A stretch of DNA of 64,000 nt from a virus: IMG/VR virus record IMGVR_UViG_3300044811_000050. One strand, written 5' to 3'. How positions within the stretch are numbered: position 1 is the stretch's first letter; every line of letters starts with the position of its first letter. This document shows, piece by piece, positions 29,554-50,930 of this stretch. A program made the translations under genes and the position numbers. Under the pieces are notes generated by a model. It worked only from the letters and a program-made list of their open reading frames with translations. It had not been told where the DNA came from and did not search any database.

Positions 29554-31137
29554 ATGGTGCTATCCGCTCACGCGGCGAAAGAGCACACCATGACGTGCCC
29601 ACAATGTGGTCAGCGCGTGAAAATGCAGCTCACCTATGGCGGTTACCGCTGCCCATTGTGCGGACATGTCTCCGGCGGCCCCCAGTCAAAGGAAGGCCGT
29701 GGAATGGCACCGGAACCCGCCGATGTGACGCGCCTGCTCCAGGAAGCGGCGCGTACCGATGACCCGACCCGGCGCGATGCGCTGGTGGCGCAAGCCGAGG
29801 ACGGCCGCGCTCAAATCACCGCCGCGCTCCAGGGCGCCAACGACGTGGACCTGGCGCGGGCCATCGTCGCCGAGCGGCTCACCCCGGTGCGGGTGCACGA
29901 GCACCACACCGCCGCCACCGACTGGCTGGGCGACATCGACACCGCCGCGCCGGCCGACGTCGAACGCGAGATGATCGCCCAGGGCTCGGTCTGGTACTCC
30001 CGGCTGCCCGAGCTGGTCAAGCAGCACCCCGACGAGCTGGTCCAGCAGGCCCTGGGCAAGGCCGCCCGGCTGGCCGGCTCGTACGGCATCGGCGCGGACG
30101 CCGCCGAGAAGGCCTTCCTCGATCACGTCGGCGCGCTGCACGCCCGGGACGTCTCCGGTGGGCTGGTCATCGTGGCCGCCGCCGATTCCCGCGAGCCCTA
30201 CGAGCTGGGCGGCCCCGCCACCAGCAACGGGCTGCCCGGCGAGCTGACCTCCTCCGAGCGGGCCCCGGCCATGCAGGACCTGCGCAACAACACCGCTGGT
30301 GGCTCGGTGAGCGACACGGAATGGCCGGACCCTCTCCAGCTGCCCCAGCAGGACGTGGACGCCGCCAACGGCGACTCAGGCACCCAACGGGTGGCTTCTC
30401 AGCAGCACGACAGCACCACCGACAACGAAAGGACCGCGTCCATGCCACAGCACACGGCCGCCTGCCCGGAGTGCTCCGGGTGCCAGGCGTGCGGGGGCAC
30501 GCACCGGGTGGCCGTGCGCGCACCTCGGACCGCCGCCTCGGGGCTCGATCAGGTTGACCAGGTCGTAGACCCGCACGACAACCCGAAGGCGACCCCCTAC
30601 CCGGAGGATGTGGCGTTCCCGTGGGAGATGCCTGAGGACTCCAGCCAGGCCATCGGGGAGACCGAGGACCAGCTCAAGCAGCGCGAGCAGCTGCGCGGCG
30701 CGTCCCGTCGGCAGCGGGCCGAGCAGGTGGCCCGGGAGGCCGCCCGCCAGGCCTACATCCGGGCCATGGGTGGCCAGGACGACTCGGGCTGGATGGGGGA
30801 CATGGGCGCCGGTGGGGTTGCGCCGGGCCAGCAGGACGGTGGCAACCCGGGCACCACCTACCCGGGCAACATCGCCGACGCGGACCCGGTGTACGGCCAG
30901 GGCGGGGACAACGGCAACCAGCCGCTGAAGCCCTACGGCGCCGACGAGGCCAACGACGTCACCAACAACCCGGGGATGAACTACCAGCCGGGCCAGCCCA
31001 CCCAGTACGACCAGGGCGGGCGAGCCAACCAGGTGGGCCAGCCCACCGCCGGGCGCCGGGCCGAGGACGACGCGCAGATTCAGCAGGCGTTGGCGTTCGT
31101 CCGCCAACGTCGGGCCCTCTTGGAGAGCCAGCGCTGA
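29554..31137 (+). CDS. head-region acidic/Gly-Pro-rich protein (putative internal/core protein)
   Basis: first late gene; CxxC fingers; low-complexity acidic segments. Confidence 0.6.
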   Translation: MVLSAHAAKEHTMTCPQCGQRVKMQLTYGGYRCPLCGHVSGGPQSKEGRGMAPEPADVTRLLQEAARTDDPTRRDALVAQAEDGRAQITAALQGANDVDLARAIVAERLTPVRVHEHHTAATDWLGDIDTAAPADVEREMIAQGSVWYSRLPELVKQHPDELVQQALGKAARLAGSYGIGADAAEKAFLDHVGALHARDVSGGLVIVAAADSREPYELGGPATSNGLPGELTSSERAPAMQDLRNNTAGGSVSDTEWPDPLQLPQQDVDAANGDSGTQRVASQQHDSTTDNERTASMPQHTAACPECSGCQACGGTHRVAVRAPRTAASGLDQVDQVVDPHDNPKATPYPEDVAFPWEMPEDSSQAIGETEDQLKQREQLRGASRRQRAEQVAREAARQAYIRAMGGQDDSGWMGDMGAGGVAPGQQDGGNPGTTYPGNIADADPVYGQGGDNGNQPLKPYGADEANDVTNNPGMNYQPGQPTQYDQGGRANQVGQPTAGRRAEDDAQIQQALAFVRQRRALLESQR

Positions 31138-31508
31138 TGGACTTCCGGGCGGCGGCCAGGAAGAGCGCGGCATCGAGCCTGACGGACTCGAATCTGTCGA
31201 GCGATCTCTCGATGGATCCGACCATGCAGGACACGCACGATCCCCGCTCGACGATTCCGCACGGCCAAGGCCCGGTGCACACCGACGGTCAGGACCCGGC
31301 CTCATCGGGCGGCTCCGCTCCCTACAACGGGGTGGAGCCGTTCGGTGAGCCGGCGGTGGATGACCCGCTCTGGCGCGATCCCTCCGAGGACGACCCCGGC
31401 CGAGGTGGCCCGATGCCACACGTCGATGGGCCGGACGAGGACAAGACCACCCTGCACAACGCCCGGCTGGCCAGCTACGCGGCCAAAGCCGACCGCTACG
31501 GAAGGTAG
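31137..31508 (+). CDS. small acidic head-region protein
   Basis: TGATG-coupled; D/P-rich. Confidence 0.65.
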   Translation: MDFRAAARKSAASSLTDSNLSSDLSMDPTMQDTHDPRSTIPHGQGPVHTDGQDPASSGGSAPYNGVEPFGEPAVDDPLWRDPSEDDPGRGGPMPHVDGPDEDKTTLHNARLASYAAKADRYGR

Positions 31509-31514
31509 AAGCCC

Positions 31515-33263
31515 GTGCTGGATCTTTGGACGGAGGCGTCCGCCGACATCGAAGGCGAGCGCACCGCGCTGCGGATGGCCAACGCCAAGGTCGCGGTCGC
31601 CGGCCTGTGGCCATTCCTGACCCTGGCCGCGAGCACGAGCGAGTTCGAGCACCGGCTGGCCCTGGCCTGGGACCACATCGCCAACGCGGTGCCGGTGGAC
31701 CTACTCCAGCCGATCACCGACAGCCTGCGCAGCGACTACGCCGTGGTCACCGAGGCGGCCAAGAACGCCGAGGGCGAGGAGGAGGCGGAGGATGCCCAGC
31801 CGCCGGGCGGCGACATGCCTGACTGGCTGGAAACCAAGATCAAAGGTGAGGGCGCCTACTACCACCGGGGTCGCCGCGAGTGGGTCACCCCGGCGCAGCC
31901 CGAGCCTCAGACGGTGGAGTTCTGGCACGAGGGCTCGCGTCGCTGGGTGACCGCCGCCGTGGACACCGAGGACGCCGCTGGGGGCGGCAACCCGTACTAC
32001 TTCACCGGCGGCCCGGAGGCCGGCCCGGCGACCGGGATGACCGACCAGTTCGCCCCGCACCCGACCGGTTCGGATCCGGTGGACCCGCTCAACCAGATGT
32101 TCCCGATGCAGCCCACCCCCTGGACTGTCCCACCGGGTGGGGAGTGGAAGGAAAACCCGATGCAGTTCAACCCGCCCGGGGGCGGTTCAGACCAGCAGCA
32201 CTCGGCGGCGCACCACGCCGCGCAGATCGGTGACACCGGCACCTGCACCGAGTGCGGGGGCAACATCAAGTACTCGGCGCACGAGCACGGTCGGGAGTGG
32301 AACCACACCGGATCCAACTCCTGGCTGCTGGACGACGCGCACGTGCCGGCGCCCACCCGCAACAGCCGCTCGGCGGCCGAGCAGAACCCGAACTACTTCT
32401 CCGGCGGCGGCGAGGGCGTGACCGGGGACCCGCAGTCGAGCTTCCCGGCCGATGAGGCCCAGGAAGATCCGGATGACCGGGTCAACGAGCTGTACGGGGA
32501 GAGCCCGATCTCGGCCGGCAGCGTCGACAACGGCTACCGGGTGGCCCGGCGCGCGGCGGCCAGCCCCGACAATCCACCGCCGGATTCCGATCCGCTCCAG
32601 GGCACCGAGTTCGACTCCCCCGAGGAGCGTGACCGGTGGGGAAAAGCTGAGCGCGGAGAGCAGCAGACCAGCCGCGACTCCTCCGCGTTGATCGGCATGC
32701 GGCACGGCGCGCGACGGGGTTTCTACGACCCGAGCGACCCGGGACTGCGCTCGGTAGCCATTGGAGATCAGTTCGGCTCGGACAACCCATTCAGCATGGG
32801 CCCGAACCCGACTCCGCCGGCCGGCGCGGGACAGCAGGATTCGAACGTCCCGACTCCGCCCACGGCGAACATCCCGCAGACCACCCCGCCCCGGCAGACC
32901 CCGGGCGGTGGGCCGGGGAGCATGCCTGGCGAGGGCGGGCCCGGCACCGACGCCTCGGATAGCGCGGCGAAGAACAACCTGCCGCCGTCGATGGGTCGGC
33001 GGGTGGCCGCCGAGACCTACGAGCGGCCCGACGACGACGACCCGACCGGGGCCGGTGACGAGTACGTGCACAACACCTGGGGCGGGCCGATTACGACCCG
33101 GCCGCGCCAGACCTCCGAGGACCGCAGGATCAACACCCCGCAGCGTCCGCGCGCTCCAATCCCGACGATCAGCTCACCCGGTCCGGGGGCGGACAACGAA
33201 GACGACCGGCGCGAGGCCTCTCGGGTGGCGGACCGGCTGATCCGAGAGCTGGTGGGTGCCTGA
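31515..33263 (+). CDS. large low-complexity head-region protein
   Basis: SD-led GTG; repeated NPxYFxGG segments. Confidence 0.65.
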   Translation: MLDLWTEASADIEGERTALRMANAKVAVAGLWPFLTLAASTSEFEHRLALAWDHIANAVPVDLLQPITDSLRSDYAVVTEAAKNAEGEEEAEDAQPPGGDMPDWLETKIKGEGAYYHRGRREWVTPAQPEPQTVEFWHEGSRRWVTAAVDTEDAAGGGNPYYFTGGPEAGPATGMTDQFAPHPTGSDPVDPLNQMFPMQPTPWTVPPGGEWKENPMQFNPPGGGSDQQHSAAHHAAQIGDTGTCTECGGNIKYSAHEHGREWNHTGSNSWLLDDAHVPAPTRNSRSAAEQNPNYFSGGGEGVTGDPQSSFPADEAQEDPDDRVNELYGESPISAGSVDNGYRVARRAAASPDNPPPDSDPLQGTEFDSPEERDRWGKAERGEQQTSRDSSALIGMRHGARRGFYDPSDPGLRSVAIGDQFGSDNPFSMGPNPTPPAGAGQQDSNVPTPPTANIPQTTPPRQTPGGGPGSMPGEGGPGTDASDSAAKNNLPPSMGRRVAAETYERPDDDDPTGAGDEYVHNTWGGPITTRPRQTSEDRRINTPQRPRAPIPTISSPGPGADNEDDRREASRVADRLIRELVGA

Positions 33264-34213
33264 TGGCCTCCTACACGGTCAAGTGCTTCAGCTGCCAGAA
33301 CGTGGGCGTGATCAACAAGATCAGCGCGCAGCTGACCTGCACCTGCGGATCCCGGGACATCGACCTGATCGACCCGGCCGAGATCACCTTCCTGGAGTTC
33401 ATGGGGGTGACCGCCAGCTCCGGCGGCACCGGCTGGAACCACACGATGCCCGACCCGCTGGACGGCTGGGACGAGTACGCCGGCCCGCCGCCGGGGGCCA
33501 ACCCGTTCTCGGCCCCCGCCCCGAACAACCCCTTTGCCTGCCAGGAGTGCCAGGGCACCAAGGTCGACGTCCGGGACGGCGGCACCTGCCGGGCGTGCAA
33601 GGGCACCGGCACTCGGACCCCCACCACGGCGGAAGCACCCGAGCCCATGGTCAAGCGGCATGACTACCCGAGCACCCAGACCAAGATCCCGTTCATGGGA
33701 CGCCATCGCAGCGCCGCGCCGGAGCGCACCCTCCGTTCCCCGGAGGAGGTGATCAAGCACACGACACCTGGCTGGGCAGGCAACAGCAGCGATCCGGGCC
33801 TATGGAATGTCTCGCCCCACCTGAAGACCCGCGATGACAACGCGGCGGCCGAGCGGTACTCCGACGAGGGCCTGGCCTCGGCCCGGGAGAAGGGCTACCC
33901 GATGCACGAGGCGAGCTGCCCGGAATGCGGGCACGCCCCGACGCACCTGGTCAACTCGCCCACCGGTGCCTGGTGGCATTGCCCGAACTGCGGGCCGCTG
34001 GAGAACATCGACAAGCACCCGGAGGTCGACCCGTACAACCCGCCGACCGACTTCAAGCCCAACCCCCGCTCGTTCAAGGCCAGCGGCCGGCGCCGCAAGC
34101 CGACCGTCCGGGTGTTCGAGATGGTCACCGTGGTAGCCGGCAACAACCCCGGCCTGAGCAATCGAGAAGTGGTCACCCTGGTTCGGCGCACCGCACAGAA
34201 ATACCCGGAGTGA
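33263..34213 (+). CDS. multi-Zn-ribbon head-region protein
   Basis: multiple CxxC pairs including a DnaJ-like CxxCxGxG. Confidence 0.65.
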   Translation: MASYTVKCFSCQNVGVINKISAQLTCTCGSRDIDLIDPAEITFLEFMGVTASSGGTGWNHTMPDPLDGWDEYAGPPPGANPFSAPAPNNPFACQECQGTKVDVRDGGTCRACKGTGTRTPTTAEAPEPMVKRHDYPSTQTKIPFMGRHRSAAPERTLRSPEEVIKHTTPGWAGNSSDPGLWNVSPHLKTRDDNAAAERYSDEGLASAREKGYPMHEASCPECGHAPTHLVNSPTGAWWHCPNCGPLENIDKHPEVDPYNPPTDFKPNPRSFKASGRRRKPTVRVFEMVTVVAGNNPGLSNREVVTLVRRTAQKYPE

Positions 34214-34216
34214 TCG

Positions 34217-34720
34217 GTGACCAACTACCCGCGTGAAGGTGCTCGGATCAGCTACGTCGGCAATGGCAACGACGGGCGAGTCCTTGGCGAGCGCGGGCGG
34301 TTGCTGGCCAGGGATCACCGCAGCGGACACGTGAAGTGGGCCGACAATTCGATCACCATGGTGGACCTGGAGGACATCGCGGCGGTGGCCTCCACCTACG
34401 GCGCCGCCCGCGCGCAGCCACGTGACGAGTTGGATGACTCGCTGGCGGTCGGTCCCATCCAAGCGGTGGGGCTACGCCAGGTGCTCGACACCGAGGGTCA
34501 GGCCGGGGTGCTCAACGCGCTGGCCGCCGCCGGCCAGCTCGGTGGGTTGGTCGGCATCGCCGAGGAGTCGCTGAGCTTCACCGCGCAGCGCATCCGCCAG
34601 GAGCCGGCGTTCCGGGAGGCGGTCGCCCAGCTTGACGACGACGAGGTGGACGCCCTGATCCAACTCGCCGCCCAGGTGCTGCTGCGTGATGCGCTTCGGG
34701 AGGGCCCCGATGCCGATTAG
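34217..34720 (+). CDS. hypothetical head-region protein
   Basis: SD-led GTG, codon bias. Confidence 0.65.
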   Translation: MTNYPREGARISYVGNGNDGRVLGERGRLLARDHRSGHVKWADNSITMVDLEDIAAVASTYGAARAQPRDELDDSLAVGPIQAVGLRQVLDTEGQAGVLNALAAAGQLGGLVGIAEESLSFTAQRIRQEPAFREAVAQLDDDEVDALIQLAAQVLLRDALREGPDAD

Positions 34721-36569
34721 ATCATGTGAGAAATGCGGCGGCCGGATGTCGCCGCGCTGGCCCCGGGCCCGGCAGCCCGACGGTCAGATGTGGTGCCCGA
34801 GCTGCGTGCAGGGCCAGTCCCACGTGCAGACCACGGCGGCGGTCAGCGACCGGCACCCCGACATCAACTGGAAGGTGGCGCGCTTCGGCGTCGCCAACAC
34901 CTCGCTGGGTCGCGCCAGCTTCCAGCTGCCCTTCATCACCGGGGCCACCCAGGACGAGCAGGAGCAGCGGCTGGCCCGACCGGAAGGCTGGGATCACTCC
35001 GGGACCGGATTCCAGCCGGTGCGCTTCGCCATCGAAGGCGCCCGCAGCTACGCCCACAAGCTGCACCTGCCCGACCCGCACGAGCACGACTACAGCCAGA
35101 TCCACCAGAACGCCGACACGGTGCGCACCGTCGGGCGGCTCTACGACAAGCTGCCCGAGCACGACCCGCACGCGATCCCGCACTTCGAGGTCATGCGCGA
35201 CGAGGTGGGTCACCAGTTCCACCACCTGACCCACACCATGGGTGTGCACGTGGAGACCACCGACCACGACCCGTACGCCAACGTGCACGAGATGACCAAG
35301 GACGTGGCCGACAACAAGCGGCTGAAGGTGCTGGGCACTCACGTCACCGGCGCCCACCCGTTCTTCTCCAACCACGAGAACGACCAGTTCCGCGCGGTGC
35401 ACGACTTCTTCGGCCATGCCGCCACCGGGCGGGACTTCTCCCGCCACGGCGAGCAGGCCGCGTTCCTGGCGCACTCCCGGATGTTCTCCGACCGCGCCCG
35501 GCCGGCGATGGCCAGCGAGACCAAGGGGCAGAACACCAGCCTGATCCTCAATGGTCACTTCAGCCCGCAGAAGATCGCGCTGCTGCCCAAGCAGCATTGG
35601 GCGGTCCGCCGTAACGCCGCCGGCTGGTCCGGTGAGGACGTGATCCGGCACGAGCTGGGCCGGCAGAAGGTGCACCAGGTCTACATCGACGGGCACCACG
35701 CCGCCGAGCTGTGCCCCGAGCACCTGCGGATGAAACGGAAGATCAGCGACTTCGCCACCGGCTTGGCCCGGCAGGTGGGCTTGTCCACCCGTTACCCGAC
35801 TATCCAGGCCAGCCCGCCCACCGAGGGCCGCTGCACCGAATGCACCCGGGTATCCGGTACCCAGTCGTTGGAGCATCCGTGGAACCCCCGCGAGCAGCCG
35901 GGCGCGATCCCCACCCAGGAGGAGAAAGTGCCGAATGGGCGCAGCCTGCTGCACCGCCAGCACCGGCCGTACGTGGACGAGTACGCCGAGGTGAAGCCGC
36001 AGATCCAGAGCTACAACCGGCGGATCGCGCTGGCCCACAAGATGGGCAAGCTCGACCGGATGAACGGGCCCGGCCCGATCCGCATCCAGGCACACGACTC
36101 CGGCGACGGCGAGACGATCTTCCATTGCCCGTTCTGCGGCTCCGGTCAGGTCATCGCCCGCAGCGACGGCACGGTGGAGTGCGAGTTCTGCTCGACCGCG
36201 TTCACCGTGCAGGTGCAACCGCAGATGCCGGCGTTCCCGCAGACCATCGACGGGGTGCCCGTGGACGTGCCTGGGATGCCCGCAGGCGGGGCGAACGCCA
36301 ACGTGCCACCCGGAACCGCCCCCGGGGCCGATCCGGGCGCTGAGGGCGATCTGGAGGCTAACAGCGGGCCCCCTGGCGCCGATGATCAGGACGACGGCTC
36401 CGATGGCGGGGACGACGACAAACCGGCGTTCCTGAAGGGCTCCACGCTGCGCACCGCCCAGGGTCAGGAGCTGCCCCGCGAGCACTACATGCAGCACCTG
36501 GCGCTCGCTCACGCCCGCGACCGTGACGCGGTGCTCGCCCAGGTCCGCGTAGAGAACGGGAGAGGCTGA
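34710..36569 (+). CDS. multidomain head-region protein with inserted HDxxGH (zincin-like) domain and Zn ribbons
   Basis: NDQFRAVHDFFGH..GE..AF..H..MFS..A..AM..ETKGQN; C-terminal CPFCGSG..CEFC. Confidence 0.6.
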   Translation: MPIRSCEKCGGRMSPRWPRARQPDGQMWCPSCVQGQSHVQTTAAVSDRHPDINWKVARFGVANTSLGRASFQLPFITGATQDEQEQRLARPEGWDHSGTGFQPVRFAIEGARSYAHKLHLPDPHEHDYSQIHQNADTVRTVGRLYDKLPEHDPHAIPHFEVMRDEVGHQFHHLTHTMGVHVETTDHDPYANVHEMTKDVADNKRLKVLGTHVTGAHPFFSNHENDQFRAVHDFFGHAATGRDFSRHGEQAAFLAHSRMFSDRARPAMASETKGQNTSLILNGHFSPQKIALLPKQHWAVRRNAAGWSGEDVIRHELGRQKVHQVYIDGHHAAELCPEHLRMKRKISDFATGLARQVGLSTRYPTIQASPPTEGRCTECTRVSGTQSLEHPWNPREQPGAIPTQEEKVPNGRSLLHRQHRPYVDEYAEVKPQIQSYNRRIALAHKMGKLDRMNGPGPIRIQAHDSGDGETIFHCPFCGSGQVIARSDGTVECEFCSTAFTVQVQPQMPAFPQTIDGVPVDVPGMPAGGANANVPPGTAPGADPGAEGDLEANSGPPGADDQDDGSDGGDDDKPAFLKGSTLRTAQGQELPREHYMQHLALAHARDRDAVLAQVRVENGRG

Positions 36570-37104: not shown

Positions 37105-37712
37105 CGCTGGCGTTGGCCGAGCCTGAAACGGAGTGCTCGGCGGAGAGATGCGGGAAGGTGCAACCCAACGGGATGTGCCGCTCGCACTATCAGCGCGCCT
37201 GGCGTAAGGCGAACGCGGAGCACCTCAAGGCCAAGAAGGCTGAGTGGTATCAGCAGAACCGCGAGACAGTCATTCAGCGCAGTCGGGTCAGGCAAGATGC
37301 TGACCCAGAACGTGCGGCGGCTTACCGCAGAAGGTGGGCGGTTGAGAACGCCGAGCACAAGGCCCAGCTGGACCGGGCGTGGGTAGTGGCGAACCGTGAC
37401 CGCTACCTGCTGCATATGAAGAGCGGTCGGGCTCGGCGGAAGGCACGTATGGCCGCAGCGCCAGTCTGTGACTTCACCTCGTCTGACTGGCTGGAGCTAC
37501 TAGAGGAGCACGAGCACCGCTGCTACTACTGCGGCTCAGATGAGGATCTTCAACAGGAACACAAGATCCCCATCGTCCGAGGTGGATCCCACACGAAGTC
37601 GAACATTGTTCCGGGTTGCAAACGGTGCAACCTGCGCAAGGGAAGACTCACGGACGGCGAATTCGGCAACAAGCTCCGCGCCCTGTTGATCCCGAGGGAG
37701 ACCGATGGCTGA
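37101..37712 (+). CDS. free-standing HNH homing endonuclease
   Basis: GMCRSHY N-terminus; CYYCG..EHKIPIVRGGSHTKSNIVPGCKRCNLRKG. Confidence 0.9.
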   Translation: MTLALAEPETECSAERCGKVQPNGMCRSHYQRAWRKANAEHLKAKKAEWYQQNRETVIQRSRVRQDADPERAAAYRRRWAVENAEHKAQLDRAWVVANRDRYLLHMKSGRARRKARMAAAPVCDFTSSDWLELLEEHEHRCYYCGSDEDLQQEHKIPIVRGGSHTKSNIVPGCKRCNLRKGRLTDGEFGNKLRALLIPRETDG

Positions 37713-39948: not shown

Positions 39949-39990
39949 TCCTGTCCTGACATTCCGGGGCACCAGGTAAAAGGTGAGGAG
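39949..39990 (+). promoter_or_regulatory. late promoter motif
   Basis: TCCTGTC-N22-AAAAGGTGAGGAG. Confidence 0.65.
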
Positions 39991-39997
39991 GTGCACC

Positions 39998-41056: not shown

Positions 41057-44000
41057 CCTTCGATGCCTGGGCCGCGCTGGACGACGAGGCCCCCGAGCAG
41101 GGATCCACGTCACCCACGGCCCCCTCCGCGTGCTCGTACTGCGGCGGGGCCGAGTTCGACGCGCCCACCGACAACGGCAAGGTGTCCCGGGCCACCTGCA
41201 CGGCGTGCCAGGGCACCATGGTCAGCCACGACGGGGTCTACTGGCAGCCGGACCTGATCGGCCAGCCGGACAACCACCCGAGCACCCAGGCCGACCCGCG
41301 CTCCGGCGGGGTGGGCGGCATCGGGGACGTCCCGGTGGTGCGCCGCGAGGAGGACCTCAACAGCCGCACCGCCGGCTTCGAGAACCGCATCACCTTCCGC
41401 CAGTACCTGCCCGGGGAAGACGAGCACGCCGACCTGGACAGCCACGACCCCGGCTGGGCGCATGGCCTGCTGGAGGCCCACGGCAACGCGGCCGAGCCGA
41501 TCGGGCGGATGGAGTTCTCCGCCGGCCCGGACACCGTCAAGATCCACGAGACCCGGGTGCACCAGGACCACCGCCGCCAAGGCGTCGCCACCGCGTTGAA
41601 TGACCGGCTGACCCAGCTGTTCCCGCACCACGAGATCGACCGGGGCGCCGCCACCGAGGACGGCGAGAAGTTCCGTCAGAGCCTGGCCGGGGTGGACTGG
41701 TGCCGGCACCGACGCGGCGAGCATTGCTGGCTGCCCCGCAACGACTCGCAGAGCGGCGGCTTCGCGCTCTACACCCCGCAGGACCGAGGAGTCTGCCCAT
41801 GGACCACGGCCAGCATGCAGCAGATCAACTGCCCGATGTCTGAGCCCGGACCGATGGCCGGCATGGAGCGCGCGGGCGTCCTGACCGACCCGGAGATGCG
41901 TTTCCACGTGCTCGCGGCGTGGCGCGACGTGCGGGCCAAGGCCAAGCGGATCCGCGCCGAGGGCGGCGTGTCCATCGTCTCGGTGCTCGCCGACGGGATC
42001 ACCGGGCACGTCAACGGGGACACCGGCGTCTACGAGAGCCAGATCAACTACGTGCCCGGCTCGTTCAAGATCGGGCATTGGCAATGCGGCTGCGCCTGGG
42101 CCAGCTACGCCTGGGGCCGCAGCCCCGCCTTCAAGAGGTTCGAGGGCCGGATGTGCTCGCACGCGCTGGCACTCCAGTACGAGGCGCAGAGCCGGGGCAT
42201 GTTCGGCAAGGAGGTCGCCGAGGACACCACCCGGCCCGGCTGGATGCGGGACAAGGTCCGGGTCCGCCACGACCGGGTGACCCGTGATCACGACGTGCGC
42301 GCGGCCAGCCTCCAATCCGGGTTGGACCCGGACGGGGTGTATCCAACGGGCCACGGCCTGGACTTGGAGGGTGCGCCGATCCACGCGTTCGCCAGCGAGG
42401 CCTTCGCCGCGCGCCGCGACCCGGCCGACGCCATGCGGGTGTTCCTGGCCGCCGGCATCGAACACACCGACGCGCGCCGCATGCTGGACGCCATCGCGGT
42501 CGGCGATCAGAGCCTCCACATGGAGGTTCAGCGCACCTTCGACAAGGTGCACGACGACTACCGGGAGCGGCACCAGGACGACCACGAGCTGGCCGAGACC
42601 TACGAGCCGCTGAAGAAGTCGGACCTGCCCGAGGAGCACCACGCCGGCTGGCGGTTCAACTCCAACGCCGACGCGGCGCCGAAGAATCAGTTCCACGAGC
42701 TGTTCTCCACCATGCCGGGCGGCTGGGACGGGCCGACCCACGACACCGACGCCCACCACGCGCCGGTCGCGCTGACCAAGTACCGGCACCCGTCCGGCAT
42801 CGAGCCGCTGCACCTGGACGAGCACGGCCAGGCCTGGGCCCGGCACTTCACCTCCCGGCCGCGCCAGGACGGCGCGCACAGCCCGGTCTTCGATCATTGG
42901 TCCGGGCCACACTCGGCGATGGATGTGATCCACAGCCACCCGACGTTCAGCCAGCGCGACGGGAAGGTCAACTGGCGTTCCCACGCCGAGCGGATGCAGC
43001 TGTCCAGCACGCTGCCCGAGGAGTCCTACCAGGACGTCCACCAGCGGAAGATGCGCAAGCTGCGCGACGCCGGCTGGGGTGTGGTCGGAGCCAAGGGGGA
43101 CGACGAGGCACCCAGCGAGCCGACCCACGCGGGCGTGGTGCTCAAGGCCGCCGACACCGGCCGGATCCTGATGATCCAACGCAGCCATCAGGACGAGACC
43201 GACCCGGCCGCCGGCACCTGGGAGTTCCCGGGAGGCGGGCGGGAGGACGGTGACCATACCTCGCTGCACTCCGGGATCCGGGAATTTGAGGAGGAAGTCG
43301 GCCAGGAATTCCCGACCGGCGGGCACGTCAGCCACGTCTGGCAGTCCCCGAACGGGGTGTACCAAGGCCACGTGGTGGTGGTGCCCAGCGAGAGCGCGAT
43401 CGACTTCAGCAACGGCCGCCGCACCACCAACCCGGACGACCCGGACGGCGACGACCACGAGCAGTCCGCCTGGTGGGATCCCGACCACGCCCGGAAGAAC
43501 CCGGCCTTGCGCCCGGAGTGCAAGGCGAGCCCCTGGGACAAGATCAAGACAGCCAGCCTGGGTACCGAGGCGGGCATCTTCACCCGCAAGCCGGTCGGGC
43601 CGGACACCCGGCCGCCGGTGGACCCCGCCGACGAGAAGCCGATGCGGGCCTGCGACGGGTGCAAGGGCTGCGCGGTATGTGGCGACAAGTCGGTGGCTGT
43701 GGACACCCTGTGGGACCACGGGTTCTGCCCCCAGCACCTGCACGAGCGCCAGAGCGGGCAGGACCCGATCCGTGACGGCGGTCGGCTGAAGCCCGTATTG
43801 GCCGGCGCCCACCACGTCGGGCGGAGGCACGTCACCGGCGAGTATGCCTCCGGTGACTACCTGGAAGACATCGGGGTGGACCCGCGCCCGAATCCCCCGC
43901 CGAAGCGCCCTGAGCCCGACCAGGCCGCCAATCCCGGCTCCACGGGCTGGGCGAGCGGCCAGGACCCGCCGGAGTGGGACGGGGCCGCTCAGAACCCCGG

Positions 44001-44475
44001 AACCATGTCCCTGACGTCCTGGTCGACCCTCCATGACGAGCCAGAGCCCGCGCTGCCGTCCACCGACGGGGCGGAGGAGACCGAGGGTGAGCGCTACCGG
44101 GCCCAGATGCGCCCGGAGATCGACCCCACCGAAGACTCAGCGCCCAGCGACGGGCGGACCGCCAGCGTCACCGACATCGTCGAACGCTTCCAGGCCACCG
44201 CCGGAGCGCGAGCACTCCAGCAGCAGAGAGGATCAGAGGCCATGGACATCGCCAGCGCCGCGCGAGCGCACCTGGAGGACGGCGGCATCCGCCGGACCGC
44301 GCTGAAGGAGTTCAGCTCGGCCGAGCAGGCCGCGCTCATCACCGAGGGTGCCGGGGGCACGCCCGCCCGCAACTTCGACGATCTTAAGATCGAGGGCACC
44401 CACTACGCCGACCTGGCGGCGGCTCTGGCCAGCGAGCAGAGCCTGACCGAGGCCGCCGACGAGCTGTTCAGCTAA
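41053..44475 (+). CDS. 1140-aa polyprotein: Zn ribbon, GNAT, SWIM finger, NUDIX hydrolase
   Basis: VHQDHRRQGVATAL (GNAT motif A); CGC..x..CSH (SWIM); WEFPGGGREDGD......IREFEEEVG (Nudix box). Confidence 0.8.
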   Translation: MTFDAWAALDDEAPEQGSTSPTAPSACSYCGGAEFDAPTDNGKVSRATCTACQGTMVSHDGVYWQPDLIGQPDNHPSTQADPRSGGVGGIGDVPVVRREEDLNSRTAGFENRITFRQYLPGEDEHADLDSHDPGWAHGLLEAHGNAAEPIGRMEFSAGPDTVKIHETRVHQDHRRQGVATALNDRLTQLFPHHEIDRGAATEDGEKFRQSLAGVDWCRHRRGEHCWLPRNDSQSGGFALYTPQDRGVCPWTTASMQQINCPMSEPGPMAGMERAGVLTDPEMRFHVLAAWRDVRAKAKRIRAEGGVSIVSVLADGITGHVNGDTGVYESQINYVPGSFKIGHWQCGCAWASYAWGRSPAFKRFEGRMCSHALALQYEAQSRGMFGKEVAEDTTRPGWMRDKVRVRHDRVTRDHDVRAASLQSGLDPDGVYPTGHGLDLEGAPIHAFASEAFAARRDPADAMRVFLAAGIEHTDARRMLDAIAVGDQSLHMEVQRTFDKVHDDYRERHQDDHELAETYEPLKKSDLPEEHHAGWRFNSNADAAPKNQFHELFSTMPGGWDGPTHDTDAHHAPVALTKYRHPSGIEPLHLDEHGQAWARHFTSRPRQDGAHSPVFDHWSGPHSAMDVIHSHPTFSQRDGKVNWRSHAERMQLSSTLPEESYQDVHQRKMRKLRDAGWGVVGAKGDDEAPSEPTHAGVVLKAADTGRILMIQRSHQDETDPAAGTWEFPGGGREDGDHTSLHSGIREFEEEVGQEFPTGGHVSHVWQSPNGVYQGHVVVVPSESAIDFSNGRRTTNPDDPDGDDHEQSAWWDPDHARKNPALRPECKASPWDKIKTASLGTEAGIFTRKPVGPDTRPPVDPADEKPMRACDGCKGCAVCGDKSVAVDTLWDHGFCPQHLHERQSGQDPIRDGGRLKPVLAGAHHVGRRHVTGEYASGDYLEDIGVDPRPNPPPKRPEPDQAANPGSTGWASGQDPPEWDGAAQNPGTMSLTSWSTLHDEPEPALPSTDGAEETEGERYRAQMRPEIDPTEDSAPSDGRTASVTDIVERFQATAGARALQQQRGSEAMDIASAARAHLEDGGIRRTALKEFSSAEQAALITEGAGGTPARNFDDLKIEGTHYADLAAALASEQSLTEAADELFS

Positions 44476-44484
44476 AGGAGCGCG

Positions 44485-47139: not shown

Positions 47140-47363
47140 TGGGCTGGCGGGGACGCGGCGGACGCACCGTCTGGACGATCCAGGTCAACCAGGACGGCAC
47201 CGCCGAGGTACTGCGCAACGGGCGGCGGGTCCAGGGCGACCGGTCGCGGGAGGAGGCGCTGCGCTACATCCGGCGCCGCTGGAGCGCTGAGCACCAGGTA
47301 ATCCAAGAAGATCCCGACGGCGCCCGCCGCGACATCACACGGCGGGTACGCGCGACTGTCTAA
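47136..47363 (+). CDS. small basic hypothetical protein
   Basis: coupled to upstream gene. Confidence 0.55.
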   Translation: MMGWRGRGGRTVWTIQVNQDGTAEVLRNGRRVQGDRSREEALRYIRRRWSAEHQVIQEDPDGARRDITRRVRATV

Positions 47364-47409: not shown

Positions 47410-49224
47410 GTGCTTCAGAAGTTCGCTGTCACGCAGATTCTCGGGGCGCGGCTCGCTGACGGCCATTCCCCGGCCCTAATGCGGACCGCTCATCGCGCTC
47501 AGTTCAACTACACGCCCCGCCCGGGGTATCTCTATGTGCGTTCCCGAATGATTTCGTCGCGGTGCAACGACAACTACGACGAATTCCCGGCCGAGGAAAT
47601 CGAGCGAGGTTACCGCTCTTTCATCGGCAAGCCGGTATTCGTCAACCACCACAATGAAGATCACCGGCGGGCGCGCGGGGTGATCATCGACGCGGTGTTG
47701 CACAAGGACGCCAACCCGGACGGCTCCCCGGACAGCTGGGTCGAAGGCTTGCAGGAGATCGACGCGCTGACCTACCCACGGTTGGCCAAGGCGATCATCG
47801 CCGGGGACATCGACCGGACCTCGATGGGCGTGGACGTGGCCTACTCGATCTGCTCGGTGTGCGCCAACAAGGCCACCACCCCGCTGGAGTACTGCCGACA
47901 CATCCCGGCCATGAAGGGGATGAAGGTGCTGCGCCGGACCGCCGACGGGAGCAGCCGCTCCGAGCTGGTCCGGGAGCGCTGTCACGGGCTGAGCTTCTTC
48001 GAGAACTCCCTATTGGTAGAGGAGCCGGCCGATCCGACGGCGTACTTCCTCGGCCAGGTGGAACGCGGCCCCGGGCTGGAGCACCTGGGCCAGCGCAGCG
48101 CCACCCACACCACCGCCGCGCCTGCGCGGGTGTACATGCACCGGGGCGGGCCGGCGTACACCCAGAACACCACCGCCGCCGGTGTCCAGCGGCTTTCCGT
48201 GACCCACGGCGGCATCTGCCGGTCCTGCCATGGTGAGGACACGCTGCGGTTCCAGGGCTCCACCGAGTGCCTGGACTGCGGTGTGGTCACCGGGCCGATC
48301 ACCCACGACGCCTCGCTGACCGCGCCGTCCATGGCGCGCGAAGGCAAGTATTCCTTCGACATGCGCAAGAACCCGGAATGGAAATCCGACCCGGGCAGCC
48401 ATCCGATCTGGCACGACCTCGGGGCCAGCGTCAATCACATCGTTCACCATTGGGACCAGGCCAGACCGCCGGAAAAGGCCGACGGCAAACGCTGGTACCC
48501 CGACGCGCACCTGGTCGCCCATCACTTCGCCCAGTCCACCGGGCATTCCACCCATCAGGCCGCTGGGGTGCTCTCCGCTTATTCGCCGAAGATGGAGTGG
48601 GGACAGAACCTTCACCACGCCATCCGCTCTCTGCACGAGGGCCGCGCGATCACCTCGGCCGAGGGCGCCAACGTCATGGCGCTGCACACCAACGCCGCCC
48701 AGCGGATCATGGATGGTGAAGACCACCAGCAGGTGTTGAAGGGGCCGAAGACCAACGCCTTCGCCCACACCATCGAGCACGGGGGCCGGGATCCCCAGAC
48801 CGGCGGGCCCTCCCATCGGGTGGTGGTGGACACTCACGCCGTCTCGGTCATGTGTGGTCGCCGGTTGAGCAAGGAAGAGAAAGCGGACGCCGCCAGCGCC
48901 ATTGGCCATCCGCATTTCTATCAGCACGCGCAATCTCTCTACCAGCAGGCCGCCGCGCACCTTTCCGCGAGGGAAGGTCGAGAAATCGCCCCGCACGAAG
49001 TGCAGGCCACCACTTGGGGTGTGCGCAAGCGGATCAACGACGAGGACGAAGACTTCAAGAACAAGGGCAATCAGACCCTTGAACGCAAGAACCGCGAGAA
49101 GTGGCAGGACTACCACAAAGAGCACACGGACAGCGGATTCGCCAGCGAATCCGCCGAGCCGGGCATGCGGAATATGCACGCCCGGCGGAACGCGTCCTCC
49201 CGGGGCCGCCGGGGGCGACGCTGA
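47410..49224 (+). CDS. capsid maturation protease fused to a DUF7178/HhH-glycosylase-like domain
   Basis: FIGKPVFVNH, TSMGVDVAYSICSVC, FFENSLLVEEPADPTA; C-terminal WY..A..AAGVLSAYSP..W..N..GPKT.AF..VVVDTHA..VQATTW. Confidence 0.75.
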   Translation: MLQKFAVTQILGARLADGHSPALMRTAHRAQFNYTPRPGYLYVRSRMISSRCNDNYDEFPAEEIERGYRSFIGKPVFVNHHNEDHRRARGVIIDAVLHKDANPDGSPDSWVEGLQEIDALTYPRLAKAIIAGDIDRTSMGVDVAYSICSVCANKATTPLEYCRHIPAMKGMKVLRRTADGSSRSELVRERCHGLSFFENSLLVEEPADPTAYFLGQVERGPGLEHLGQRSATHTTAAPARVYMHRGGPAYTQNTTAAGVQRLSVTHGGICRSCHGEDTLRFQGSTECLDCGVVTGPITHDASLTAPSMAREGKYSFDMRKNPEWKSDPGSHPIWHDLGASVNHIVHHWDQARPPEKADGKRWYPDAHLVAHHFAQSTGHSTHQAAGVLSAYSPKMEWGQNLHHAIRSLHEGRAITSAEGANVMALHTNAAQRIMDGEDHQQVLKGPKTNAFAHTIEHGGRDPQTGGPSHRVVVDTHAVSVMCGRRLSKEEKADAASAIGHPHFYQHAQSLYQQAAAHLSAREGREIAPHEVQATTWGVRKRINDEDEDFKNKGNQTLERKNREKWQDYHKEHTDSGFASESAEPGMRNMHARRNASSRGRRGRR

Positions 49225-49957
49225 CGCCGTAGGCCCCCGGCTGGCTTACGGCGAGACCAAGGCGCCCGCCGAGGTGGACACTTTGCGGGACGAGAGCTGC
49301 CCGGTGTGCGGGGAGGACTCCGCCTGGGACGGCGATGAGTGCAAGGTCTGTGGCTTCGTCGCGCCGCCGGACAAGTTCGGTGACCCCGACGTCGACATGC
49401 ACAAGAAGCTCGACCTGCGCAACAACGACGACCTGGACGGTGGCGACGTCGCCGACCTCAACGCCGATACCAACGACCGGGACGGCGACGGGTTCGACGA
49501 CAACACCGGCGAGCCGATCACCGACGAGGACCAGGCCGGCGCCGACGACGTACAGCCGATGCTGTCCTGCCCGAGCTGCGGCTACGAGGTGGAGGCCGGC
49601 GAGCCGGTCAGCACCAACACCGCCGACCCGACGATGGGCGACGCCGGAGCCGGCCCGGCCGCCGGGGACCTGTGCCCGAACTGCGGCAAGGCCCCGCTGG
49701 AATCCCCCGGCGAGCTGACCGAGGAGGGCATGCCGGCACCGGAGGACGCCGAGCAAGACCCGGCTGAGCTGGATGCCGAGTTGGATGCCGAGGAAAACCC
49801 GGAGCAAGACCCGAACGCCATTCCCGACAATGACGACGAAGCGCCGGGAGAAAAGCCCTTCGCCGACGATGGGGATGAAGAAGAGGACGACGAGGAAGAC
49901 GGCCAGGACGACGAAGAGCCGCCTGCCAAGAAGCCCTTCCCACCACGGAAGAAATGA
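49225..49957 (+). CDS. acidic Zn-ribbon protein without a clear start; probable frameshifted C-terminus of the protease
   Basis: strong coding bias from ~49240 (AYGETKAP..CPVCG..CKVCG); no SD-led start. Confidence 0.55.
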
Positions 49958-49994
49958 AACACCCCGTCCCGCATGACGAAGGAGCAGATTAGTC

Positions 49995-50930
49995 ATGTCC
50001 CGTCCCGCGCTCGCCGCCCTCGCGGAGCAGCAGCAACTGATCAATGCCCAGGCCCAGAGGATCACCGCCCAGGACCGCCAGCTCGCGGCCCAGAGCCAGA
50101 TCATCGGGCAGTTCAAGCGAGCCTTCGCCAGCCAGCGCAACGAGATCGTCGCGCTCGGTCGGGGGCTGCGGGCCATCGCCCAGGCGGCCGGCATCGAGGG
50201 CCATGTGCGCACCGCGATGCTGCGTACCGCCGACGAGCAGAACCCGGCCGAGCCGGTGCCCGAGCCGCCGGCCGTGCCGCCGACCCAGACCACCCAGGAC
50301 GCCAAGACCCCGGAGGCCTTCGGCGACGTGCAGGCGCCGGGGTTGGTGCCGGGCTCGACTAACGACGTGGCGGCGGACGCGACCAGCACCGTCTACACCC
50401 CGGGGGACGACATCCCGGGCCCGGCGGTGAAGAACCTCCAGGACGTCACCGCCCCGGTGGACGGCACCCAGAACCCCCGGCCGCTGAACGAGGTGCGCAC
50501 CCTGACCGACGTGCGGGTGGGTGACCCGATGAACCCGCAGACGGCGTTCCCGCTGCGTGGTGACTTCGCCAACGCCCAGCGGCTGGGGGCCAAGGAGGCC
50601 GCCGGCAACCGCACCATGGCCGCGCTGCGACTGGCTCGGCTGCGGATGCAGGCCGGGGTGGCCCAGGGTGACTCCGACTTCGAGGTGGCCGCCGGCATCG
50701 AGCGGGACGCCGCGATGACCACCGAGACGATCGAGGCCGAGATCAGGACCCTGGACGGGGTCAGCAAGGCCGCCGCCGCCAAGCAACAGCGCCCGGCTGG
50801 TCTGGTGCCCCGCGCGGCTTCGGCCAACGGCGGGCGCAGCGTGCCGTCCATGCAGCAGGTGACCGCCGGCAACGGCGGCGCGGCGGCCACCGACGACGAC
50901 GTGGCCGACGCGGACCTGTTCCTGAGCTGA
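49995..50930 (+). CDS. putative scaffolding protein
   Basis: coiled-coil N-terminus; position between protease and capsid genes. Confidence 0.55.
   Translation: MSRPALAALAEQQQLINAQAQRITAQDRQLAAQSQIIGQFKRAFASQRNEIVALGRGLRAIAQAAGIEGHVRTAMLRTADEQNPAEPVPEPPAVPPTQTTQDAKTPEAFGDVQAPGLVPGSTNDVAADATSTVYTPGDDIPGPAVKNLQDVTAPVDGTQNPRPLNEVRTLTDVRVGDPMNPQTAFPLRGDFANAQRLGAKEAAGNRTMAALRLARLRMQAGVAQGDSDFEVAAGIERDAAMTTETIEAEIRTLDGVSKAAAAKQQRPAGLVPRAASANGGRSVPSMQQVTAGNGGAAATDDDVADADLFLS

Follow-up and report, generated by a model that had tools for sequence, protein, structure and literature searches.

Basic-x-Ala motifs in the head-region polyvalent proteins of an uncultured actinophage as likely cutting sites of a herpesvirus-like head protease

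Why does a short motif, a basic residue followed by any residue and alanine (basic-x-Ala), recur in large phage head-region proteins that also carry enzyme domains, and might it mark the places at which these proteins are cut? The question is raised by the window analyzed here, a stretch of 64,000 nucleotides from IMG/VR virus record IMGVR_UViG_3300044811_000050. A first-pass annotation of positions 29554 to 50930 had proposed that enzyme cargo is fused to head proteins, released by a protease, and delivered with the DNA to counter host defense. All 13 motif instances that it listed exist in the sequence.

The head-assembly block and its multidomain proteins

The region lies in the head-assembly block of an uncultured actinophage (high GC, ∼150 kb). 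This block comprises the portal, scaffold, and minor and major capsid proteins, plus several large multidomain "polyvalent" proteins. Sequence comparison relates the phage distantly to the Bxz1/Myrna-type (cluster C) mycobacteriophages; gene order and lineage agree with Myrna and Pupper, and the portal has about 40% identity to its counterparts in cluster C mycobacteriophages and Gordonia phage Pupper. The Myrna capsid is T=16, with gp98 as its minor capsid protein (PMC7150772). A literature search on cluster C phages found no proteomic or biochemical data. The genes for the portal and capsid proteins are as follows.

37705..39948, plus strand: portal protein (phrog_2833 at 1e-149)
51663..52178, plus strand: minor capsid protein, homologue of Myrna gp98 (phrog_2783 at 9e-40; 37% identity to Myrna gp98)
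52207..53193, plus strand: major capsid protein (phrog_2522 at 9e-101)

Upstream of the portal gene lie the pre-portal genes.

29554..31137, plus strand: 527-aa pre-portal protein with an N-terminal Zn ribbon (open reading frame, GC3 0.89)
31137..33263, plus strand: two open reading frames of 123 aa and 582 aa, with seven basic-x-Ala sites
33263..34720, plus strand: 316-aa Zn-ribbon protein (RTA near its C terminus) and 167-aa protein, both conserved upstream of the portal in relatives
34686..36569, plus strand: 627-aa protein (phrog_3170 at 1e-75)
34821-35603, plus strand: His-rich enzyme-like domain of the 627-aa protein, residues 46 to 306 (phrog_3170, AF2)
36075-36566, plus strand: conserved C-terminal Zn-ribbon module of the 627-aa protein, residues 464 to 627

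No similarity of the pre-portal proteins to any known virion protein was detected by Pfam, PHROG, and sequence comparison, and profile comparison with Pfam and PHROG matched no family to the 527-aa protein. In relatives, the 123-aa and 582-aa open reading frames correspond to a single protein of 660 to 780 aa (fused in L009, L010, L011, L012, L015, and L017). The Zn-ribbon C-module of the 627-aa protein is a standalone 206-aa protein in five relatives and is attached to other N-terminal domains in others.

The portal gene is followed by a second group of polyvalent features.

39983..40333, plus strand: 116-aa protein with a basic-x-Ala site near its N terminus (open reading frame and alignment)
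41053..44475, plus strand: 1140-aa polyvalent protein, from N to C terminus a Zn ribbon, GNAT, SWIM-like core, NUDIX, and C-module
41437-41655, plus strand: GNAT, residues 129 to 201 (PF00583; 23.4 bits against a cutoff of 20.7, a marginal pass)
41842-42252, plus strand: SWIM-like core (CxC...CxH pattern)
43126-43500, plus strand: NUDIX, residues 692 to 816 (PF00293; 39.8 bits against a cutoff of 21.1)
44155-44472, plus strand: conserved C-terminal module with an acidic Leu-Phe tail (alignment)

In the relatives L007 to L012, L016, and L019, the 116-aa protein is fused to the large polyvalent protein as its N-terminal domain. The GNAT and NUDIX domains that had been noticed in the head-region genes both pass the Pfam cutoffs: GNAT motif A (R/Q-x-x-G-x-A/G) is present as R-R-Q-G-V-A, with a GNAT score of 32.8 bits in the L004 homologue, and the Nudix box contains R-E-F-E-E-E-V-G, with the first Glu of G-x5-E replaced by His. 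The SWIM assignment holds as a C-x-C-x(n)-C-x-H pattern but not at the family level (PF04434, 12.5 bits against a cutoff of 19.6; E value of 0.11). The SWIM-like core and the C-module are common to the 1140-aa protein, Myrna gp96, and Pupper gp93.

The third group contains the putative protease and scaffold.

47410..49224, plus strand: prohead protease polyprotein (phrog_18299, phrog_2774, AF2)
47506-48069, plus strand: predicted assemblin-fold protease domain (AF2 and structure comparison)
48427-49050, plus strand: DUF7178, DNA-glycosylase-like helical domain, residues 340 to 538 (127.8 bits against a cutoff of 27)
49205-49219, plus strand: candidate +1 frameshift site GCCGCCGGGGGCGAC (GC3 and frame analysis)
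49205..49957, plus strand: +1-frame extension with R-L-A-YGETKAP, two Zn ribbons, and an acidic linker
49995..50930, plus strand: scaffold-like protein with a coiled coil, Pro/Ala-rich sequence, and an acidic Leu-Phe tail (sequence features)

The last of these is not the capsid protein: comparison of the 49995-50930 protein with capsid proteins gave no match, its features are scaffold-like, and the capsid protein is encoded at 52207-53193.

Judged by their sequences, the polyvalent proteins appear to be built from constant head-associated modules that bear variable enzyme modules (GNAT, NUDIX, DUF7178, and the His-rich domain). At least two unrelated enzyme domains lie in one polypeptide (GNAT with NUDIX; protease with DUF7178), the genes lie beside those for the portal and other head proteins in a tailed phage, and domain architecture differs between relatives, all of which recalls the polyvalent proteins of Iyer et al. 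2017 (PMC5512222) and the MuF polymorphic toxins of Jamet et al. 2017 (PMC5576092). A solo GNAT among the late genes of cluster C phage Alice was already described (PMC5512222). Unlike the Iyer class, the window's own proteins contain no Pfam polyvalent-protein domain, and none of their Pfam matches is a zincin-like MPTase, ART-PolyVal, or LPD domain.

Order bias and conservation of the basic-x-Ala motif

The tripeptide RTA occurs 12 times in the head-region proteins against 3.2 expected, a count reached in none of 500 shuffles, and twice elsewhere against 5.0 expected. In a screen of all 8,000 tripeptides, RTA ranked first (P = 1.5e-4), which alone fails correction for multiple testing, and the non-head genes contain an equally extreme tripeptide, FDE (P = 6e-5). 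These two values are what would be expected if the recurrence reflected composition, shared ancestry, and post hoc selection with no function, and many relatives indeed share sites by descent. Permuted residue orders, which control for composition, argue decisively otherwise: in the head polyproteins, [RK][TVSN]A is found 27 times and its five permuted orders 6 to 9 times each, the corresponding counts for RTA being 12 and 0 to 1, whereas all six orders of [RK][TVSN]A are flat, at 20 to 24, in the non-head genes, such that the permuted orders are 3 to 4 times rarer only in the polyproteins. The 12 RTA sites lie in eight different 9-mers, and the signal is therefore at the protein level. Myrna gp87/96/97 (26 against 2 to 14) and Pupper gp86/93/94 (17 against 5 to 12) show the same bias; identity is only ∼40% in the few modules that align, and the pre-portal proteins are nonhomologous. 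Across 141 polyprotein homologues the motif order was counted 618 times against 292 to 365 for the permuted orders, with unmatched open reading frames flat, and it was the most frequent of the six orders in 38 of 58 related loci and not the top one in 20. We therefore confirm the proposed enrichment of [RK]-[TVSN]-A above the Arg/Ala-rich background, which is confined to the large head-module proteins. Neighboring positions are biased as well, with A, S, or G at P1' in 51% of sites (28% background) and Arg at P4 in 21% (6% background). An absence of function, most improbable in our view, is largely refuted by the order control, the 58-locus count, and the conservation of sites at which the middle residue is free.

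This conservation extends to the capsid protein: behind a leader of variable sequence come G-L-R-x-[RK]-x-A and [RK]-K-S-D-D-Y in turn, and 61 of 62 distinct sequences have the [RK]-x-A. In the window, it is R-Q-A at nt 52246 to 52254, beyond the 29554-50930 range considered earlier, and cluster C capsid proteins have G-L-G-R-F-[AS]-K. The same [RK]-x-A motif thus marks both the capsid propeptide region and the leader of the protease, where basic-x-Ala was found in 32 of 35 sequences; the L/I-x-E or A/S/G-x-E motif of T4 and phiKZ is not the enriched one. The scaffold site, [RK]-x-A-D-x-x-N-P at residue 77 (nt 50223 to 50231), is kept as basic-x-Ala in 37 of 46 sequences and retains Ala in 48 of 49. 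Capsid N terminus, protease leader, and scaffold are all places at which a prohead protease would be anticipated to act. A further conserved site lies at the junction before YGETKAP.

Among the polyvalent proteins, RTA1081 of the 1140-aa protein is retained as [RK]-x-A by the whole family, and this gp96-type C-module site reaches cluster C. K25-V-A of the 31137..33263 unit is kept as K-[VIM]-A in all eight homologues. The 527-aa protein has a cluster of four R-[TV]-A sites within residues 279 to 328, of which R293 is basic-x-A/S in five of seven homologues and R318 in four of seven. The site in the C-module of the 34686 protein reads Y-R-T-x-S-G, and its Ala is not conserved. Searches of relatives for conservation of R16 and R496 of the 31515 protein, R309 of the 34686 protein, and R176 of the protease, which lies inside the fold, found none. 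Several of the sites listed in the first-pass annotation, R176, R309, and R16, are thus unconserved, and its description of the motifs as domain boundaries applies to some sites (RTA105, KTA832, and RTA1035 flank the GNAT, NUDIX, and C-module of the 1140-aa protein) but not to every one. A three-residue motif with one free position is a weak predictor of single sites.

A putative head protease and the reading of the sites

The protease polyprotein comprises a disordered leader with R25-T-A, the protease, a linker starting from R229-S-A, a Zn ribbon, and DUF7178. The AF2 model of residues 34 to 220 matched T4 gp21 (5jbl) with a Z score of 10.4 (rmsd of 2.7, 127 residues aligned) and the VZV, PRV, HSV, and HCMV proteases with Z scores of 7 to 9.2, which assigns the modeled domain to the T4 gp21/herpesvirus assemblin fold. 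Among 25 or more sequences, at least 97% retain H80 (V-N-H) and S138 (T-S-M-G). The gene is located between those for the portal and the capsid protein, and it is fused to the scaffold in relatives, where protease genes encode 489 to 2,043 aa. In the window, a +1 frameshift at 49205-49219 is probable from the sequence, as the +1 frame has a GC3 of 0.93 to 0.97 and no start codon upstream of the conserved YGETKAP peptide; the same layout was found in L004 and L021 to L024, and the extension module is in frame in seven other relatives.

Basic-x-Ala is most likely the cutting site of this predicted herpesvirus-like protease. Its assemblin-fold serine protease domain, with His80 and Ser138, would recognize basic-x-Ala, in many cases preceded by Arg at P4 and followed by a small P1' residue, and would cut after Ala, as herpesvirus assemblin does; this position of the scissile bond is suggested purely by analogy. 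The protease would trim the capsid leader and its own leader, free itself from DUF7178 and the scaffold, and separate the modules of the polyvalent proteins. We consider it improbable that the motif is instead a short signal, common to head-assembling proteins, by which they dock on or are recognized by a partner such as the portal, the coat shell, a chaperone, or a modifying enzyme. Enrichment and conservation indicate selection and not cutting, and some conserved sites lie inside conserved modules (R1081 in the gp96-type C-module, the scaffold site before an invariant D-x-x-N-P, and the protease site before an invariant H-R). Docking is, however, harder to reconcile with the capsid site, which follows a leader of variable length and sequence in the usual layout of a propeptide, or with protease sites 25, 229, and 593, which lie at disordered domain borders in segments with a pLDDT below 50 in the AF2 model; four sites within 50 residues of the 527-aa protein fit degradative processing better, and the neighboring genes include one for a protease of suitable fold.

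The reading as cutting sites can be compared with known head-processing systems. Like T4 gp21, the enzyme would be a prohead serine protease of the same fold, and as in T4, phiKZ, and SPN3US, the tripeptide site recurs across many head proteins, with the protease and the capsid protein among them. The SPN3US protease also processes itself, and its sites, with several per propeptide, all conform to A-x-E (PMC10052503). The T4 (IPI-III, Alt), phiKZ gp175, and SPN3US gp245 systems carry enzymes in the head, as is proposed here from genes alone. Unlike in T4 and phiKZ, the motif is basic-x-Ala rather than L/I-x-E or A/S/G-x-E, and the cargo is located inside giant multidomain proteins and the protease-scaffold gene, whereas theirs consists of small proteins with an N-terminal targeting peptide.

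The herpesvirus assemblin-scaffold pair UL26/UL26.5 has release and maturation sites of the form (V/L/I)-x-A|S. Besides the fold, the phage resembles this pair in that the protease is fused upstream of the scaffold in many relatives, the scaffold-like sequence being the C-terminal part of their 1,000- to 2,000-aa protease genes. An in-frame AAGGAG ahead of the scaffold Met suggests a nested scaffold gene. Ala would occupy P1 with small residues at P1', R-V-A-A lies ∼14 residues from the scaffold C terminus in Myrna and Pupper, similar to the herpesvirus M site, and the lineage shares the T=16 capsid (PMC7150772). In contrast to herpesviruses, P3 is basic and not hydrophobic, enzyme domains lie between protease and scaffold, and in the window the unit is split over three reading frames.

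For polyvalent and MuF proteins, autoprocessing by an embedded metallopeptidase or no processing was proposed (PMC5512222 and PMC5576092). The family-wide site shared here by capsid protein and scaffold suggests the prohead protease instead. Self-cutting by the His-rich phrog_3170 domain as a zincin-like metallopeptidase, with the prohead protease uninvolved, is very improbable, even though autoprocessing by an MPTase domain was suggested by Iyer et al. (PMC5512222). The domain noticed in the first-pass annotation is real (phrog_3170; AF2 pLDDT of 90.6), with H200, D201, G204, H205, H215, G216, E217, and H224 invariant in 45 sequences, but its motif does not bear out the zincin label. Comparison of the model with solved structures found no fold above a Z score of 3, and the weak matches, although mostly zincin-like (CapP, YbeY, abylysin, ArdC, and PprI), have Z scores of 2.1 to 2.8, in the noise range; structure-atlas rows gave Peptidase_M78 at a weak TM of 0.28 to 0.31. 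The invariant motif, H-D-F-F-G-H (H-D-x-x-G-H), has four residues between its His residues and does not match zincin HExxH. In the five relatives without the His-rich domain, the syntenic pre-portal protein is the 206-aa C-module only, and basic-x-Ala also marks the capsid protein, scaffold, and protease.

Enzyme modules and their possible fate

If the sites are cut by the head protease, the polyvalent proteins would enter the procapsid via conserved modules, as their shared motifs suggest. For the GNAT-NUDIX protein, this module would be the acidic Leu-Phe C-terminal tail, which is identical in kind to that of the scaffold; 41 of 45 scaffolds carry such a tail, as do 11 of 20 polyvalent proteins, compared with 7 of 996 other open reading frames. 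From these sequence features, loading into proheads and cutting after Ala are rather probable. A head protease code of Arg/Lys-x-Ala on polyvalent proteins would, if true, extend both the internal proteins of T4 and phiKZ and the Iyer-type polyvalent proteins.

Some released enzyme modules may remain in the head and exit with the DNA, and we put forward such injection, and anti-defense roles of the cargo, only tentatively. Somewhat more doubtful is that the modules are loaded and cut yet are not injected anti-defense effectors, acting instead in the producing cell or the head (DNA care or modification by the glycosylase-like domain, nucleotide cleanup by NUDIX, or acetylation of head proteins by GNAT) or being discarded with the scaffold. 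DUF7178, noticed in the earlier reading and confirmed as a family by its Pfam score, rides on the protease, an enzyme that normally either exits the head or remains there in inert form. The folds closest to DUF7178 belong to DNA glycosylases and a queuosine nucleoside glycosylase (MjOgg, Z score of 9.5 with 175 residues aligned and rmsd of 4.0; AGOG, 7.9; MagIII, 7.3; DUF2419, 7.9), although helical domains can attain such scores by chance; at least 95% of sequences retain K447, D474, and H476. No ejection mark was seen in the sequence. NUDIX, found in 8 of 9 relatives, is near constant, unlike typical arms-race cargo, and is therefore not freely exchanged; it may be a core function instead.

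Injection, on the other hand, is favored by the company that these domains keep. In unrelated phages, NUDIX likewise appears in fusions with portal/MuF and with a capsid protease. The same domains occur in MuF/portal fusions and with ART-PolyVal, the partners of the His-rich domain elsewhere including GNAT, glutaredoxin, zeta-toxin/AAA_33, HPr, ART-PolyVal (PF18760), MuF (PF04233), and DUF7178, and delivery into the host is predicted for such architectures (Iyer et al. 2017, PMC5512222; Jamet et al. 2017, PMC5576092). The expected swapping of cargo was borne out by alignment of homologues, except for NUDIX: enzyme modules are exchanged among relatives while head-associated modules stay constant, and GNAT (2 of 9 relatives), ParB-like (1 of 9), and other modules vary between close relatives.

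Head genes of the window and its relatives

The window has a G+C content of 65 to 72% and a coding signal that is clear in GC3. Its head genes are syntenic with those of the mycobacteriophage Myrna and the Gordonia phage Pupper, in the order large pre-portal protein, portal, large gp96-type protein, "capsid maturation protease," small protein, and major head protein. The portal shows ∼40% identity to those of cluster C (Bxz1/Myrna-type) mycobacteriophages, Pupper, and Rhodococcus phages; for the pre-portal proteins, BLAST detected no similarity to Myrna gp87 or Pupper gp86. About 200 related contigs were found in IMG/VR, several of them 150 to 165 kb long, and 98 loci were taken for analysis. 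The following features are referred to below.

37705-39948, portal (phrog_2833 at 1e-149)
44440-44475 and 50895-50930, acidic Leu/Ile-Phe tails (DADLFLS and ADELFS)
51663-52178, minor capsid protein, Myrna gp98-like, just beyond the polyprotein region (29554-50930)
52207-53193, capsid protein (phrog_2522 at 9e-101), also just beyond that region

The capsid gene probably starts with the ATG at 52207, since the longest open reading frame (ORF) has a start (52153) that probably lies too far 5′. Among solved capsid proteins, the nearest is PDB 6wkk. The Myrna capsid has T=16 geometry, with gp98 as the minor capsid protein (PMC7150772). The ORF at 49995-50930 was rejected as a capsid protein; its product is coiled-coil, Pro/Ala rich, and scaffold-like, with no capsid match.

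Two gene arrangements near the head genes were also observed. An HNH endonuclease gene (37101-37712; PF14279, 44.5 bits) lies immediately 5′ of the portal gene and overlaps its start; L003 and L004, the closest relatives, lack it and have a 102-amino-acid gene abutting the portal. Between the gp96-type gene and the protease gene, a block of small membrane-protein genes (44985-47363) comprises 45018-45194 (58 amino acids, two transmembrane segments), 45683-46204, and 46201-47139. Similar small ORFs occur in two relatives (L022 and L023), and the block may be a lysis-type cassette outside the head system.

A recurring basic-x-Ala motif in the head polyproteins

The first-pass annotation had read the head-region proteins as polyproteins with R/K/H-x-A motifs at which enzyme cargo is released. 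This reading is partly supported: the recurrence of the motif in the head polyproteins is confirmed, and all 13 motif instances that it listed were found. By within-protein shuffling, RTA occurs 12 times in the head region (3.2 expected) and twice outside it (5.0 expected). Because the motif had been picked after inspection of the data, three further controls were applied. RTA tops an unbiased screen of the 8,000 tripeptides in the window (P = 1.5e-4), which is not significant after correction; permuted-order controls and independent genomes were therefore used. Permuted orders, in which the same motif residues are scrambled, keep composition identical, local composition included.

That the motif recurs by chance is the rival explanation to which these counts speak. 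The window polyproteins contain 27 copies of [RK][TVSN]A, versus 6 to 9 for each other order, and 12 of RTA, versus 0, 0, 0, 1, and 1 for its permutations. The non-head genes of the window gave 20 to 24 for every order, and the excess was likewise absent from portal, capsid, and tail-side proteins. Among cultured phages, the motif order was counted 26 times, versus 2 to 14, in Myrna gp87/96/97 (gp96 from annotated coordinates) and 17 times, versus 5 to 12, in Pupper gp86/93/94. In 141 homologues from uncultured relatives, it reached 618, versus 292 to 365, and was the largest of the six orders in 38 of 58 loci (∼10 expected), while a further 806 unmatched ORFs were flat across orders. Tripeptide counts pooled over relatives, which conserved portal motifs dominate, were left out.

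A motif at the level of the DNA was rejected because eight different 9-mers encode the 12 RTA sites. Because codons vary among sites, the signal lies at the protein level; the Thr of all 12 sites is encoded by ACC, which makes up 70 to 74% of Thr codons anyway. Around the presumed cut, P1′ is Ala, Ser, or Gly at 51% of sites (28% background), and P4 is Arg at 21% (6% background).

Individual sites were also followed across relatives.

Conserved basic-x-Ala sites in head proteins
Capsid protein, N terminus: a leader variable in length and sequence, then G-L-R-x-[RK]-x-A, then [RK]-K-S-D-D-Y; basic-x-Ala kept in 61/62 distinct sequences, middle residue V, I, T, A, Q, or S; in Myrna and Pupper, G-L-G-R-F-[AS]-K occupies the equivalent position
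Protease leader: [RK]-x-A immediately before the fold in 32/35 sequences, with eleven middle residues
Scaffold: [RK]-x-A-D-x-x-N-P in 37/46 sequences; Myrna and Pupper have R-V-A-A-N-D-P ∼14 residues before the C terminus
GNAT-NUDIX protein (41053-44475, 1,140 amino acids, gp96 type), C-module: [RK]-x-A at residue 1081, family-wide, extending to Myrna gp96 and Pupper gp93
Module after DUF7178: starts [RK]-x-[AS]-Y-G-E-T-K-A-P in most relatives

Some of the sites listed by the first-pass annotation lacked conservation in relatives, namely, protease R176 (inside the fold), R309 of the 34686 protein (34686-36569, 627 amino acids), and R16 and R496 of the 31515 protein. The site in the C-module of the 34686 protein reads Y-R-T-x-S-G, with Ala not kept. 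With a basic residue and an Ala retained, and the residue between them free to vary, at no fewer than five unrelated places, the conserved sites have the appearance of P3/P1 recognition sites. Basic-x-Ala might alternatively be a docking motif and not a cleavage motif. A literature search for N-terminal or proteomic data on processing in Bxz1, Myrna, and Rhodococcus phage E3 found none. The most parsimonious reading, which we consider reasonably probable, is that the prohead protease cuts head-loaded multidomain proteins at basic-x-Ala, with the scissile bond probably following the Ala. The arrangement would be similar to that of T4 and phiKZ, in another lineage and with another cleavage code. 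If basic-x-Ala is the cutting code, it would be the first head processing rule for cluster C-type actinophages, a group represented by hundreds of isolates grown on Mycobacterium smegmatis, and the mature ends of capsid, scaffold, and cargo proteins would become predictable from sequence.

Protease, scaffold, and a candidate frameshift

The protease gene (47410-49224) encodes a disordered leader (residues 1 to 30), an assemblin-type domain (residues 34 to 220), a disordered linker, a Zn ribbon, and the helical DUF7178. A search of the protease sequence against solved structures found nothing; structurally, the assemblin-type domain matched T4 gp21 (Z 10.4) and herpesvirus proteases (Z 7 to 9.2), and His80 and Ser138 are invariant. 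DUF7178, which had been named from the sequence, passes its Pfam cutoff (127.8 bits). In structure it comes closest to HhH-GPD glycosylases and to DUF2419, a queuosine glycosylase, with Z values of 7.3 to 9.5 that are suggestive of a glycosylase-like fold for the modeled domain and not decisive for a helical domain; Lys447, Asp474, and His476 are conserved in ≥95% of sequences. In relatives, protease genes encode 489 to 2,043 amino acids; the spacing between the protease domain and DUF7178 varies, NUDIX is present in one, and a C-terminal scaffold is present in many.

The protease frame stops at 49224, directly 3′ of the 15-mer GCCGCCGGGGGCGAC (49205-49957 region), which is identical in L004, L021, L022/L023, and L024 despite differing flanks. 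The +1 frame keeps a GC3 of 0.93 to 0.97 as far as 49957, and its translation contains R-L-A-YGETKAP, two Zn ribbons, and an acidic linker; no start codon lies in this frame upstream of the conserved YGETKAP peptide. Seven other relatives encode the YGETKAP/Zn-ribbon module in frame, which makes a programmed +1 frameshift likely; on the nucleotide sequence, this frameshift would place GGG in the P site and the rare CGA in the A site.

An acidic Leu/Ile-Phe C-terminal tail was present in 41/45 members of the scaffold family, 11/20 of the gp96-type family, and 7/996 other ORFs, and is a candidate signal for coat binding or capsid targeting. In other systems, scaffold tails bind the coat shell; the scaffold-type tail of the GNAT-NUDIX protein is thus the best available hint that this protein is built into proheads.

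In fused protease-scaffold ORFs of three relatives (L044, L056, and L082), K-E-Q precedes the scaffold Met. The counterpart in the window (49975-49997) reads AAGGAGCAG, which would be an in-frame Shine-Dalgarno sequence and suggests a nested, separately translated scaffold gene, resembling herpesvirus UL26/UL26.5.

Enzyme modules and their possible delivery

Of the enzyme domains proposed earlier, NUDIX passes its Pfam cutoff (39.8 bits) and GNAT does so marginally (23.4 bits), whereas SWIM, at 12.5 bits, is under its cutoff of 19.6, with the Cys/His pattern present. The proposed swapping of cargo among homologues was seen, in gp96-type proteins, for GNAT (present in 2/9) and a ParB-like nuclease (present in 1/9) and not for NUDIX (present in 8/9). 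The gp96-type proteins of relatives range from 657 to 1,643 amino acids. In five relatives, the last 160 residues of the 34686 protein occur as a protein of their own, and in others they follow different N-terminal domains. The 116-amino-acid gene at 39983-40333 corresponds to a domain that gp96-type proteins elsewhere carry at the N terminus.

By analogy with Alt, MuF fusions, and the polyvalent proteins of Iyer (PMC5512222; PMC5576092; PMC10052503), any enzyme modules loaded into the head might be injected to counter host defense, a possibility that we consider less likely than not; the rival explanation is that the enzymes act before or inside the head. More tentative still, and unlikely as it stands, is a single, simple and reusable capsid cargo system throughout a lineage of ∼150-kb actinophages, including the cultured Bxz1 and Myrna. 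An enzyme module of any kind, bounded by basic-x-Ala linkers and joined to a scaffold-like acidic Leu-Phe tail (or to the protease-scaffold gene), would be loaded into the prohead, cut by an assemblin-type protease whose Ala specificity resembles that of herpesviruses, and expelled along with the DNA, with a conserved +1 frameshift setting the ratio of short to long protease. If basic-x-Ala is indeed the cutting code, the "polyvalent protein" idea, to date a computational one only, would be linked to a specific loading signal and a specific protease, and a further parallel between T=16 phages and herpesviruses would lie in the fusion of protease and scaffold, the nesting of the scaffold gene, and the Ala at P1. 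Such a code would also suggest a possible route for loading foreign proteins into mycobacteriophage heads.

The "HDxxGH" region of the 34686 protein is a well-defined domain, with a phrog_3170 match, invariant His/Asp/Glu, and an AF2 pLDDT of 90.6. Earlier labeled zincin-like, it is not an HExxH zincin, and no solved relative is convincing. Foldseek gave no PDB match with an E value of 0.001 or better; in VIA-align, none of 48,161 chains scored above Z 3 (the weak rows, Z 3.0 or less, being mostly zincin-like proteins), and an Atlas feature search gave nothing. Autoprocessing of the polyproteins by this His-rich domain is a rival to cutting by the prohead protease. The domain is also present in the cluster C phage LinStu and, in public data, is fused to GNAT, glutaredoxin, zeta-toxin/AAA_33, HPr, ART-PolyVal with Arr, MuF, DUF7178, and inteins.

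Three proteins that contain the His-rich domain (P0014, P0029, and P0037) also carry intein domain PF14528, accompanied in two of them by PF14890. The GNAT-SWIM-NUDIX protein of the closest relative (L004:13243-17322, residues ∼347 to 768) appears to carry a LAGLIDADG intein inside its SWIM-like core, with Pfam intein matches under their cutoffs. Cys4-type Zn ribbons recur in the window (29590-29665, 33280-33350, 34725-34810, 41130-41215, 48200-48295, and 36105-36180), located at or near the N termini of four polyproteins; they also separate the protease from DUF7178 and form part of the conserved C-module of the 34686 protein.
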